The position numbers were made by a program, and so were the translations under genes. This document shows positions 3,829 through 8,984 of a DNA stretch of 23,605 bases, one piece after another. Position 1 is the first letter of the stretch; every line of letters begins with the position of its first letter. The notes beneath the pieces are model-generated. The model worked only from the letters and a program-made list of their open reading frames with translations. It had not been told where the DNA came from and did not search any database. Source of the DNA: a virus (Duplodnaviria > Heunggongvirae > Uroviricota > Caudoviricetes); the IMG/VR virus record IMGVR_UViG_2537562191_000021, positions 1-23,605 of that record. The stretch is one strand, 5' to 3'.

Positions 3829-3862
3829 ATAACTTTAAATAATTGGCATTATTTAAAGTTAG
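3829..3862. other. lox-like recombination site (13-bp inverted repeats flanking an 8-bp asymmetric spacer)
   Basis: ATAACTTTAAATA / ATTGGCAT / TATTTAAAGTTAG. The right arm reverse-complements to CTAACTTTAAATA, a 12/13 match to the left arm. Arms share ATAACTT..ATA with the canonical loxP arm ATAACTTCGTATA. Lies 152 bp upstream of the Cre-family gene. Confidence 0.55.
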
Positions 3863-3870
3863 GCTATAAT
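3843..3870 (+). promoter_or_regulatory. Putative sigma70 promoter reading toward the cre-like gene, overlapping the lox-like spacer and right arm
   Basis: -35 TTGGCA (3843-3848), 16-bp spacer, -10 TATAAT (3865-3870). Confidence 0.3.
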
Positions 3871-4013: not shown

Positions 4014-5042
4014 ATGAGTGAATTAATTATCTCTGGCAGTTCCGGTGGTTTTCTGCGCAACATTGGCAAAGAGTACCAGGAGGCCGCAGAAAACTTTATG
4101 CGGTTCATGAATGACCAGGGGGCTTACGCGCCGAATACTTTGCGCGATCTCCGGTTAGTGTTTCACTCTTGGGCGAGATGGTGTCACGCTCGCCAGCTCG
4201 CCTGGTTCCCGATCTCACCAGAGATGGCCCGCGAGTATTTTCTTCAGCTGCATGATGCTGATCTGGCTTCGACCACCATTGATAAGCACTACGCCATGCT
4301 GAACATGCTGCTTTCGCATTGTGGCCTTCCACCACTTTCGGATGATAAAAGTGTTTCTCTGGCTATGCGGCGCATCCGGCGCGAAGCGGCAACTGAAAAA
4401 GGCGAACGAACAGGCCAGGCTATACCGCTGCGGTGGGACGATCTGAAACTGCTCGACGTCCTGCTGTCCAGGTCAGAACGGCTGGTGGACCTGCGCAACC
4501 GGGCTTTTCTCTTTGTTGCATACAATACGCTGATGCGTATGTCGGAAATATCGCGTATTCGTGTAGGAGATCTGGACCAAACAGGTGACACTGTCACGCT
4601 ACATATTTCACACACGAAGACAATAACGACCGCCGCCGGGCTTGATAAGGTGCTTTCCCGTCGCACTACCGCTGTGCTGAATGACTGGCTGGATGTTTCA
4701 GGGCTTCGCGAACATCCTGACGCAGTGCTGTTCCCGCCGATACACCGTAGCAATAAGGCCAGGCTCACGACAACGCCCCTTACTGCACCTGCAATGGAGA
4801 AAATATTCAGCGACGCCTGGGTGTTGCTGAATAAAAGAGATGCTACGCCAAACAAAGGAAGATACCGGACGTGGACCGGGCATAGTGCACGCGTCGGGGC
4901 CGCTATTGATATGGCTGAAAAGCAGGTGTCTATGGTGGAGATCATGCAGGAAGGAACCTGGAAGAAACCGGAAACACTTATGCGGTATCTTCGCCGTGGC
5001 GGCGTGTCTGTGGGGGCTAATAGCCGCCTGATGGATTTATAA
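4014..5042 (+). CDS. cre: Cre-family tyrosine site-specific recombinase
   Basis: 342 aa, alignable along its length to P1 Cre as remembered (WFP..PE, LNML..GLP.PSD, AFL..AYNTL.R..EI.RIRV.D, HSARVGAA.DMA, W...RYLR). Catalytic Arg-His-Arg-Trp-Tyr positions are conserved. SD AGAGG 8 nt upstream. Confidence 0.85.
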   Translation: MSELIISGSSGGFLRNIGKEYQEAAENFMRFMNDQGAYAPNTLRDLRLVFHSWARWCHARQLAWFPISPEMAREYFLQLHDADLASTTIDKHYAMLNMLLSHCGLPPLSDDKSVSLAMRRIRREAATEKGERTGQAIPLRWDDLKLLDVLLSRSERLVDLRNRAFLFVAYNTLMRMSEISRIRVGDLDQTGDTVTLHISHTKTITTAAGLDKVLSRRTTAVLNDWLDVSGLREHPDAVLFPPIHRSNKARLTTTPLTAPAMEKIFSDAWVLLNKRDATPNKGRYRTWTGHSARVGAAIDMAEKQVSMVEIMQEGTWKKPETLMRYLRRGGVSVGANSRLMDL

Positions 5043-5058: not shown

Positions 5059-5115
5059 ATCTTTTTAGATTAACGCCTTTGCTGTAAAGTACCCTCGCCT
5101 ATTTAGGAGGGTGCT

Positions 5116-5460
5116 TTGCAGAGTCAAATCACGGAATCAAGACGCTTCAAGGTGGAAGGTTACACCGTAACCTTCGCCGCTGGTGTTAAGAACAGTCATG
5201 CTGTCGTTGTGTTCGGCATCATGACCGGGCTTGAGGCCGTCCCTGTGTTTACCCTCGAAAAAAACTGGCGAAATCTGGCGGAAGCAGAAAGCTACGTCCG
5301 GAAAGTAACCATCATTGCCGCCGAAAAACTCCTGGCCCACTATCAGGAAAATTATCGCACTATGGTCGAGAAGATTAATCTCGCTTTCACTCGCCCCACT
5401 ACCGGCTTTATTGCACCGGATACTAATGCAGGTCGATATCCTGCAAGGGGGCGTCGGTGA
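5116..5460 (+). CDS. Hypothetical protein, 114 aa (TTG start)
   Basis: Strong SD AGGAGG (5105-5110) 5 nt before TTG at 5116; first gene of a tightly packed six-gene plus-strand cluster. Confidence 0.5.
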   Translation: MQSQITESRRFKVEGYTVTFAAGVKNSHAVVVFGIMTGLEAVPVFTLEKNWRNLAEAESYVRKVTIIAAEKLLAHYQENYRTMVEKINLAFTRPTTGFIAPDTNAGRYPARGRR

Positions 5461-5933
5461 AAACTTATTACCCATCTCTGAATTGTTACCCGTCTTCCTA
5501 TCCAGAATTATCCGGGAAGCTGTTAGCTCTATTAGCTAAAGCACCTACGGAATGGTTTAAGCCAGTCGTTATCAATCCACACTTCCTGGATTACGGAACT
5601 GTTCGCACTCGTAACGAACTCAAAAACCTACTGGCGCATGGATTCATTCGACACCGTGCCGGGAAAGGCTATCAGTTAGCGATTGCGCCAGAAGAGGCCG
5701 TGCGGCTATTCGCATATCGTGACAGCCAGACAAAAGCTCGGGTAATAGCTCAAATACTTCATAACGGCAGCACCTATGCCCGCCAGTTTGGCGGCGACAC
5801 GTCGCAGTTCTTGCGGGCGGTGCGATCGCTGGAGGAGCAAGGAGTTATTGAAAGTTCCTGTCTTCCTGTTCCTACCGTTCCACATATCAAACGTCGGGTT
5901 TACACCTTCACGCAGAGAGCTAAAAAACAATGA
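5457..5933 (+). CDS. Hypothetical protein, 158 aa (GTG start overlapping the upstream stop)
   Basis: Start overlaps the previous stop; its own stop overlaps the dut start (ATGA at 5930-5933). Confidence 0.5.
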   Translation: MKTYYPSLNCYPSSYPELSGKLLALLAKAPTEWFKPVVINPHFLDYGTVRTRNELKNLLAHGFIRHRAGKGYQLAIAPEEAVRLFAYRDSQTKARVIAQILHNGSTYARQFGGDTSQFLRAVRSLEEQGVIESSCLPVPTVPHIKRRVYTFTQRAKKQ

Positions 5934-6424
5934 TTTACGTAAAAGTGAAACGCCTACATCCGGCAGCAAAACTTCCAGCTTATGCCACCTCCGGATCGGC
6001 GGCGATGGATTTTGAGGCTGTTGAAATAAAACCATGCGTCGATAGCAATGGTGCAATTTCCTCAAGCTGGTGGGTGTACACCGGACTGGCTATGGAGATC
6101 CCGCCCGGCTGGTGTCTGAAACTCTATCCGCGCTCCGGATTGGGCTGCAAAAAACATACTCGCCTGGCTAACTGCGTAGGAATTATCGACTCAGATTATC
6201 GCGGTGAAATCATGGCAAAACTGATTACTGATCCCGGCGGGGAAGGCGTTTGTCTCAAGCCTGGAATGGCTGTCATGCAAGGCATTTTTGAGCGTGTTGA
6301 ACAAGTCTCACTAGTCGAGGTTGAGGAACTCAACGAAACGGAACGTGGTGCTGGTGGCTTTGGTAGCACATCGGAAGACCACTTTGAAATCAAGCGCACA
6401 CCGCTTCAGTACGCAAAGTTTTAA
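5930..6424 (+). CDS. dut: dUTP pyrophosphatase (trimeric dUTPase)
   Basis: Conserved dUTPase motifs in order: AKLP..AT.GSAAMD, PRSGLG, GIIDSDYRGE, GMAVMQGIF, ERGAGGFGSTS. Confidence 0.85.
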   Translation: MIYVKVKRLHPAAKLPAYATSGSAAMDFEAVEIKPCVDSNGAISSSWWVYTGLAMEIPPGWCLKLYPRSGLGCKKHTRLANCVGIIDSDYRGEIMAKLITDPGGEGVCLKPGMAVMQGIFERVEQVSLVEVEELNETERGAGGFGSTSEDHFEIKRTPLQYAKF

Positions 6425-6438
6425 GCAGAGGAAAGGCT

Positions 6439-7089
6439 ATGAATTACATGGCAACGAAAGAGCTTTTTAAGTTCCTTCCCAAATACAAAGCTCACAAAAA
6501 CGTTAGTGCATCGAAAATCAAAAATGTTGTTATTTTCGGAGTAACTGATGCCCCACTTTGGGGCTGCATTGAACTCGTTGAACCAAAAGGGGCAACAGTT
6601 TGTGTTGACGCAATGTTTTTACAAAAACACCGACCAAAAACTGGCGGGTATCTGATCGTTTATGAAAACGGTTATCTGTTCTATGCCCCGGAGAAACCAT
6701 TTGAGGAATGCTATGGCCTGGTTAACGACGCCTCCGAAAATGGAACCACGGTCATCATTACGGATGACAACGGCGTGATGATTAATATTACCGGGAGTGT
6801 AACTATTTCTGCTGGTGGTACCACTACCCAGCAAGAGGAAATCGACCTTGAAGCAGCCGACTTTTCTGATGCGCTAATGTGGCTGAAAGAAGGAAAAAAT
6901 GTAGCTCGACGCGAGTGGAAAGGCGAAAAGCAATTCTGCTGGTTAGTTCTCGCTGGGAGCGTCAATTTACACGACATTCAGGTTCCTTATGGTGACCATT
7001 TCGTATTGAAAGATGCACAAAATATGGACAGCGTTTGGTTGCCGTCTGTTGATGATTTACTGGCTTGTGACTGGTTTGTAGTGGAGTGA
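6439..7089 (+). CDS. Hypothetical protein, 216 aa, with a Trp-rich C-terminal domain resembling DUF2829 (from memory)
   Basis: C-terminus DFSDALMWLKEGKNVARREWKGEKQFCWLV...WLPSVDDLLACDWFVVE. SD GAGGAAAGG before ATG 6439/6448. Confidence 0.55.
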   Translation: MNYMATKELFKFLPKYKAHKNVSASKIKNVVIFGVTDAPLWGCIELVEPKGATVCVDAMFLQKHRPKTGGYLIVYENGYLFYAPEKPFEECYGLVNDASENGTTVIITDDNGVMINITGSVTISAGGTTTQQEEIDLEAADFSDALMWLKEGKNVARREWKGEKQFCWLVLAGSVNLHDIQVPYGDHFVLKDAQNMDSVWLPSVDDLLACDWFVVE

Positions 7090-7095
7090 TTTGAC

Positions 7096-7863
7096 ATGGA
7101 AAGCACCAAAACAATTCAATACCGCTTGCGTAATGGCCTGCTGGTGGCTGTTAACGCCGACATGTCACTGCCGTTTGACACGATTGAACGCACTATCATG
7201 ACGTATCTCGGCTTTAATGAAGAGCTGAATGAAGAGCATGGCGTAGCTATATGGAGTGATGCAGACAGCGGCGTTCGTCGTTACATCACCGCCAGGGGCA
7301 AAGACTACTCTCTGGAAGAACTGTTTGCCCTTGCACAGTCTTTCGAATGTGTAGCATTAGACCTGTTTAATGATCCTGCTATAGCGCAACGACTTATACG
7401 CGAGCTTGGGCTATCCGTTACACCAATTATCTTTAAAAATGGCAGCCTGACTGGCACATGGCGCGTAGAACGCATCTCAAACTACCTTCCATATAACCGA
7501 CAGTTAAATGGAGTAATCTCCGGTGTTAATCAGCCCGTAGCGTGTGAAAATGTAAACCTGGTTGTCGCTGTTTTGGCAACCGCATGTCGTGTTATCGGTT
7601 TGGCTAAACAGGCATTTATTCATTTCCCAAATGGTGCAGAGGGTAGCGCAGAGATTATCGCGTGTGATTTCGAATTTACCTGGATGCTACGCGAATATCT
7701 GGACCAAACAGTGTTCCGCGCCGAAGAACTGGATATGTATATCACGTCAACGATTCCTGATGATGTGCGTGCTGAAGCAATCGCTACAGCAAGGGCCAAA
7801 TGCCGTGCGGCGATTGCAGAGCAGGCCAAAGAAGAAGTTAAGGAAGTGGCAGATGGCGACTAA
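7096..7863 (+). CDS. Hypothetical protein, 255 aa, partner of the degenerate terminase paralog
   Basis: Stop overlaps the downstream ATG by 11 nt (ATG 7853, stop 7861-7863), the same coupled arrangement as the packaging pair at 54-2554; no detectable similarity to the 54-1046 product. Confidence 0.55.
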   Translation: MESTKTIQYRLRNGLLVAVNADMSLPFDTIERTIMTYLGFNEELNEEHGVAIWSDADSGVRRYITARGKDYSLEELFALAQSFECVALDLFNDPAIAQRLIRELGLSVTPIIFKNGSLTGTWRVERISNYLPYNRQLNGVISGVNQPVACENVNLVVAVLATACRVIGLAKQAFIHFPNGAEGSAEIIACDFEFTWMLREYLDQTVFRAEELDMYITSTIPDDVRAEAIATARAKCRAAIAEQAKEEVKEVADGD

Positions 7864-8947
7864 GAGCAATATTTATAAAGATCCGCGCTGGCTGTCGCTG
7901 GTGGAGAAATATAAAGACAATTGGGTTCTGGCAGCAAAAGAATTGTTTGATATTGATTTAAGCCACCAGCAACAACAAATTGTTGAAGCTATACAGCCCA
8001 ATAATGCAAAAGCTACTGTCACAACTCCGCATGGGATCGGACGACCGCAAGTGCTTGCTGTTATTAGTACCCTTTATACGATTATGTATCCTGATTCCCG
8101 GACAGTAATTGTTTATCCAAAATCAAATGCTTGCAAAAAAGGAATTGTTGCATATGTGTGGCAATGTTGGGAGGCATTACTGAAAAAACAACCTTTTATC
8201 ATTGAGTATTTTAAGGTCGGTGATAGCGGTCTGATGTTCAATGAATTTTGGGGAATGTGCTTTTGTAACTACCGCCTTAACTATGAAGATAGCATTGCAG
8301 GTCACTACGCCGACCATCTGTTATTCATTATTGTGGATTCCGCACATATAAGCGATCGGGCATACAGTATTGTGTGGGCAAGCATGACTAGTGGTGATTC
8401 ACGCATATTGCTCACTTCAATTCCGTCACCAGAGGAAATAGGATTTTTTTATGATTCTCATCATGGGCGTGCTTTAGCTGAAGATAATCCGAGTGGTGTC
8501 TATAAAGCCATTAAGCTGAGTGCTGAGGATTCACCATTTATTACCCAAGAATATCTTGATCATTTTGCCGAAAGGTATGGCGGGCGAAATAGTGATGACT
8601 ACCGTCGTATGATTCTTGGTGAGTTCCCTGGTATTAGGGAGGCTGTTCTTGAATCAGATATGCCGAAAACAATGCGTTTTTCAATGCCTGATGGCAGTGA
8701 ATGGACAATGCCATTACGAGTGATAGCCAAGCATCATGCACAGCACCACGCCAAAAAACATGGCGTTACAACATTAGAGTGGTTGAAATCGCACACCATT
8801 CCACTCTTCACTGCAGATCACAATGCTATCGTTGAGTGGGCAAAAACAATTCCGTGGGGGAATGTCGCTGAATACGCCCACATGCTAAAACCGCCGAAAG
8901 ACAGGCAAGAAATTAGCTGGCTGACAGCAGAAAAAATCATTGAGTGA
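7853..8947 (+). CDS. Terminase-large-subunit ATPase-domain paralog with degenerate Walker motifs and no nuclease domain (pseudo-terminase)
   Basis: 364 aa from ATG 7853 (SD AAGGAAG). Shares DPRW, HQQQQI, YFYDSHH, DNP.G, L..E.SPF.T and GEFP blocks with the 1046-2554 protein, but Walker A reads TTPHGIGRPQV (Lys to Arg, Ser to Pro) and Walker B reads LLFIIVDSAH (catalytic Glu lost). The C-terminal nuclease half is replaced by an unrelated 90-aa His-rich tail. The longer ORF from 7562 is rejected. Confidence 0.7.
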   Translation: MATKSNIYKDPRWLSLVEKYKDNWVLAAKELFDIDLSHQQQQIVEAIQPNNAKATVTTPHGIGRPQVLAVISTLYTIMYPDSRTVIVYPKSNACKKGIVAYVWQCWEALLKKQPFIIEYFKVGDSGLMFNEFWGMCFCNYRLNYEDSIAGHYADHLLFIIVDSAHISDRAYSIVWASMTSGDSRILLTSIPSPEEIGFFYDSHHGRALAEDNPSGVYKAIKLSAEDSPFITQEYLDHFAERYGGRNSDDYRRMILGEFPGIREAVLESDMPKTMRFSMPDGSEWTMPLRVIAKHHAQHHAKKHGVTTLEWLKSHTIPLFTADHNAIVEWAKTIPWGNVAEYAHMLKPPKDRQEISWLTAEKIIE

Positions 8948-8953
8948 TAGTAG

Positions 8954-8984
8954 GAAGCCCGCTTGGTTGAGCGGGCTTCTTTTC
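8954..8984 (+). terminator. Intrinsic terminator closing the plus-strand island
   Basis: gaagcccgc-ttggttga-gcgggcttc, a 9-bp stem, followed by TTTTC; lies between the convergent pseudo-terminase and doc genes. Confidence 0.5.

Follow-up and report, generated by a model that had tools for sequence, protein, structure and literature searches.

The window, a stretch of 23,605 nt, belongs to a D6-type phage-plasmid and matches the E. coli plasmid pE2863-2 at 100% identity and phage D6 at 96.5%. P1, which the initial annotation had taken as the backbone, was ruled out as its identity by these best matches, and a rox site and the dre gene lie just upstream of the genes considered here (Table 1). 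Six plus-strand genes, which we call g1, g2, dut, g4, g5, and g6, occupy positions 5116 to 8947 as first described and are closely coupled, with successive junctions of -4, -4, +14, +6, and -11 nt. Identical CDS calls for all six appear in the RefSeq record of pE2863-2, and the dUTPase, the DUF2829 protein, and the "pseudo-terminase" recognized earlier are all present. In D6 (NC_050154; Gilcrease & Casjens 2018), the order dre-orf117-orf116-dut-orf114-orf113 runs in the matching orientation, and the products of dre, g1, g2, dut, and g5 are 94-99% identical in amino acids to their D6 counterparts, whereas g6 is absent and a pdcA-like gene precedes doc. The equivalent region of P1 reads lox-cra-cre-c8-ref-mat, not cre followed by cra, hxr, and ddr, the order first given.

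Table 1. Features of the dre region in the window
Feature	Coordinates	Strand	Description and basis
rox recombination site	3829..3860	.	TAACTTTAAATAATTGGCATTATTTAAAGTTA; "rox site" in D6 annotation; upstream of the six-gene block
Sigma-70-like promoter	3843-3870		TTGGCA-16-TATAAT; overlaps rox; promoter scan 11/12
dre	4014..5042	+	Cre-like tyrosine recombinase; ORF, 99% aa identity to D6 Dre
Hairpin	5085..5118	+	AAAGUACCCUCG paired with g1 Shine-Dalgarno (AGGAGGG) and TTG start; RNA fold
g1	5116..5460	+	114 aa; P1 c8 homologue; TTG start, AGGAGG RBS; phrog_1968 E 5e-47
g2	5457..5933	+	158 aa; phrog_6669
dut	5930..6424	+	164 aa; trimeric-type dUTP diphosphatase; PF00692 E 2e-14
g4	6439-7089	+	216 aa; Dec-like N-terminal module fused to Tad2 (DUF2829) domain
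g4 N-terminal module	6439..6843	+	aa 1-135; OB-fold-like domain and beta-rich linker; phage L Dec homologue
g4 C-terminal domain	6844..7089	+	aa 136-216; Tad2-like (DUF2829); PF11195
g5	7096..7863	+	255 aa; IsaA family, P1 isaA homologue; phrog_2326 common to g5 and IsaA
g6	7853-8947	+	364 aa; PacB paralogue; coupled to g5, AAGGA RBS
g6 N-terminal domain	7853..8638	+	aa 1-262; PacB (large terminase) ATPase-domain paralogue; tblastn, alignment
g6 C-terminal domain	8639..8947	+	~100 aa; takes the place of the terminase nuclease domain
Intrinsic terminator hairpin	8952..8981	+	13-bp stem, then UUUUC; between convergent g6 and doc

Simple scans of the 73 nt that separate the dre stop codon from g1 returned neither a sigma-70 consensus promoter nor a terminator; the six genes therefore probably form the downstream end of a transcript whose probable first gene is dre. 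The hairpin over the g1 start has a predicted energy of -17 to -18 kcal/mol (z = -2.7) and is largely kept in five relatives, among which clear compensatory changes were not found. This structure might hold back translation of g1. At the far end, the strong terminator reported after the block was borne out: it lies within the 35 nt that separate g6 from doc and folds at -22 kcal/mol (z = -5.1 versus shuffles), with none of 200 shuffled sequences folding as well.

The distribution of these genes bears on whether the block is, as the initial annotation proposed, an island that a P1-like backbone acquired by horizontal insertion. Such an insertion would fit the GC content of g4 and g6 (0.44 and 0.425, as against 0.49-0.53 for dre, g1, g2, and dut) and the lack of g6 in D6 and about two-thirds of relatives. 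The synteny comparison instead finds g1-g2-dut both in phage D6 and in 128 PLSDB plasmids (126 of them at ≥80% coverage), most of which carry the genes at 95-100% identity; moreover, g1 is a c8 homologue at a P1-like position, g5 is isaA, and the backbone is that of D6, not P1. The island reading is thus largely refuted, and we regard it as scarcely credible. By their distribution, g1-g2-dut is lineage backbone, and g6, whose DNA occurs in 48 of the 128 plasmids (about a third of relatives), is the only accessory gene among the six. Relatives include variants of the locus that lack g6, that lack g4, or that lack phd-doc, and g4 is occasionally absent or swapped among them. Five of the six genes are conserved as a block in relatives, and of these dut alone carries a housekeeping annotation.

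Domain searches with the 114-, 158-, 216-, and 255-aa products, as suggested at the outset, matched g1 to phrog_1968 (c8), g4 to PF11195 (Tad2), and g5 to phrog_2326 (isaA), whereas the 158-aa g2 product matched phrog_6669, and its profile found nothing significant in the PDB. The c8 assignment is made because g1 and P1 C8 (E 6e-53) both match phrog_1968; the two genes occupy like positions, directly after dre and cre, but the pairwise identity of their products is only ~22%. In the P1 record, c8 is labeled "establishment of lysogeny, putative." The g2 family is confined to D6-type elements of Enterobacteriaceae, with only 9 clusters among 5.8 billion proteins. Adjacency of g5 to a Tad2-like gene is conserved in P1-type and D6-type elements alike, and the best BFVD match of g5 is Q9XJG5, a 150-aa P1 "Uncharacterized protein" that may be a short P1 IsaA.

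By family membership, dut is an ordinary dUTPase. All catalytic motifs are intact (PRSGLG, GIIDSDYRGE, and RGAGGFGST), the protein scores 121.6 bits against NCBIfam NF001862 (equivalog cut-off, 103), and it matches solved dUTPases at E 2e-25 and E. coli Dut at E 2e-21. Staphylococcal phage dUTPases derepress SaPI Stl, and a comparable regulatory role had been raised for this gene; dut would then be the functional center of the block, and its product would serve in signaling or derepression, directed at a resident mobile element or repressor, rather than as an enzyme. The staphylococcal proteins, which have the trimeric dUTPase fold and temperate-phage origin in common with dut, are the sole analogy for this idea, to which may be added the fusion of dut to the Tad2 domain via a deletion in some plasmids (for example, P0064), from which it follows that dut and g4 tolerate physical linkage. 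Nothing in the dut sequence searches pointed to regulation. The complete catalytic motifs and the curated cut-off passed argue against it, as does strong purifying selection (dN/dS 0.06-0.10), and alignment to 150-152-aa bacterial Duts reveals only a 14-aa C-terminal tail, with no extra motif or insertion domain. The staphylococcal enzymes differ further in having a known partner repressor, and we know of no SaPI-like partner in enterobacteria. A staphylococcal-style regulator is therefore unsupported and, in our estimation, very improbable.

The C-terminal domain of g4 matches PF11195 well above threshold (64.6 bits, cut-off 25; E 1e-17) and solved Tad2 structures (ModTad2, E 1e-9; SPO1 Tad2, E 1e-5), and the top Foldseek match is ModTad2-HisADPR (E 4e-8, TM 0.76-0.88). 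Three residues, Trp160, Trp200, and Asp206, are invariant among 56 homologues and align to Trp25, Trp73, and Asp79 of SPO1 Tad2, which contact the ligand in that protein (bioRxiv 10.1101/2023.05.01.538930). The Pfam family, the fold, and this Trp-Trp-Asp core of the gcADPR pocket are thus common to g4 and the Tad2 sponges SPO1 Tad2, ModTad2, and HgmTad2 ("AcrIIA7"). The g4 pocket is nevertheless atypical relative to SPO1 Tad2 (N26K, T65D, H71S, and T78D), with Lys161 in place of the usual Asn, and the β2-β3 insertion is short, so that an HgmTad2-type cyclic-dinucleotide pocket is not expected. Tad2 has been reported from D6 elements before: an automated screen found it in 93% of D6-type phage-plasmids and in 56% of the P1-type ones (bioRxiv 10.1101/2025.09.12.675607). 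We consider the g4 Tad2 domain a candidate sponge that would bind the nucleotide signals of Thoeris and other immune systems, which makes the anti-defense role proposed earlier plausible, DUF2829 being the Tad2 anti-Thoeris sponge family. Because the ligands of the family are diverse (3'cADPR, His-ADPR, N7-cADPR, cCMP/cUMP, and cyclic dinucleotides), the target defense system cannot be named.

Characterized Tad2 proteins are ~90-105 aa long, whereas g4 carries a further 135-aa N-terminal module. The AF2 model of this module is confident for aa 1-97 and of low confidence for aa 98-135. A profile built from 18 homologues matches phage L Dec (PDB 6e3c) at E 2.8e-6, and Foldseek does so at E 3e-3; the similarity covers the OB-fold half and the next β-rich segment, but identity is only ~23% and the likeness is one of sequence and fold only, g4 being fused to Tad2 and encoded outside the structural module. 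Stand-alone homologues of the N-terminal module occur in many phages, one of them, in phage Dolphis, annotated "capsid decoration protein." This annotation, the Dec homology, and the atypical pocket would suit a g4 that is primarily a virion protein of the capsid-decoration kind, its DUF2829 domain having a role unrelated to immune-signal sequestration. We find this unlikely: the gene lies in a recombinase operon distant from the structural genes, the Tad2 core is invariant, all DUF2829 proteins with a demonstrated function so far are signal sponges, and the D6 counterpart, at 146 aa and 79% identical over the common part, lacks the first ~100 aa, that is, most of the Dec-like module. Against the sponge reading, a Tad2 tetramer and a Dec-like trimer within one protein would be a symmetry mismatch. 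Judged by sequence divergence, allele swapping in the operon is concentrated in g4, with dS of 0.77 against 0.01-0.2 in flanking genes and 61% amino-acid identity where its neighbors show 96-99%.

The last gene, g6, the frame of which extends upstream as an ORF at 7562-8947 with an upstream TTG, encodes a protein whose N-terminal domain is 37.6% identical to D6 PacB and 33% identical to P1 PacB by tblastn (33-38% over ~255 aa). In g6, as compared in a motif table of 137 representatives, Walker A reads GIGRP for GTGKS, with the lysine and Ser/Thr gone, and Walker B reads IVDS for LDEA, with the Asp-Glu gone; the non-catalytic PacB motifs GYFYDSHH and EYGGRDS are kept, and SEDSP is also common to both. 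Alignment to PacB shows large deletions and loss of the nuclease domain: PacB has ~500 aa, whereas g6 has 364, an unrelated C-terminal domain standing where the nuclease was. Unlike PacB, g6 is encoded in a recombinase operon beside isaA, not with pacA. Its C-terminal domain has no match in Pfam, but stand-alone homologues (P0179, P0224, P0244, and P0252; 33-40% identity) are sited in arrays of small phage-like genes. A neighbor-joining tree places g6 in a separate clade of ten short Walker-dead paralogues (32-48% mutual identity), a grouping of fast-evolving sequences that long-branch attraction could inflate. All readable contexts in the clade agree, in that P0119, P0125, P0129, and the MH422554 homologue belong to C1/Cre or P1-type phage-plasmids and each lies beside an intact PacB; three others were uninformative. 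As judged from its motifs and the tree, g6 is a catalytically dead PacB paralogue from an old clade. Searches of g6 against PADLOC, Pfam, and PDB sequences gave nothing beyond terminase homology, and the dead-terminase family appears to be undescribed; its function we infer below.

The loss of the Walker residues and most of the nuclease domain, together with the absence of g6 from most relatives, might be expected of a decaying, functionless remnant of a terminase duplication. Decay is very unlikely given that dozens of plasmids preserve an intact 364-codon ORF, that dN/dS of 0.06-0.15 between close alleles points to purifying selection, and that two PacB motifs are retained. The ten-member clade, the gain of a separate C-terminal domain that also occurs stand-alone, and translational coupling to g5 with its own ribosome-binding site likewise speak against it.

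We moderately favor a model of a D6-type phage-plasmid in which these six genes make up the distal stretch of the dre operon, arranged as a backbone with two cargo slots. The vertically inherited backbone would comprise g1 (c8-like), g2, dut, and g5 (isaA-like); the exchangeable slots would hold g4, the fusion of Dec-like module and Tad2 domain, and, in about one-third of relatives, g6, the dead PacB ATPase paralogue with its small C-terminal domain. Promoters close to rox would drive dre and the six genes together, both in the lysogen and soon after entry. Dut would hydrolyze dUTP and so keep uracil out of the replicon, and the Tad2 domain of g4 is predicted to sequester a TIR- or cyclase-derived nucleotide signal, such that a Thoeris-type abortive defense would not be triggered.

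Being unable to hydrolyze ATP or cut DNA, g6 must act by binding, and its partner would most plausibly be terminase-related: PacA, the PacB ring, the portal, or pac DNA. Our best guess, a tentative one, is that it acts as a poison or modulator of packaging, above all that of rival P1/D6-type phages. Less probable, though weightier than the remnant reading, is that g6 promotes or regulates the packaging of the element itself, for example by timing pac cleavage or stabilizing PacA-PacB, and is not a weapon against rivals; an intact PacA/PacB pair is always co-resident, the PacB of its own lineage is the closer one, and non-catalytic surface motifs are conserved. Since D6 and about two-thirds of D6-type plasmids do without g6, it is dispensable, which counts against such a role, as does its place in the dre operon rather than among late genes. 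Allele exchange counts against it too: a second g6 allele occupies the identical locus with a 96% identical C-terminal domain, whereas the N-terminal domains of the two are swapped, at 36-69% identity, in resident backbones that remain alike.

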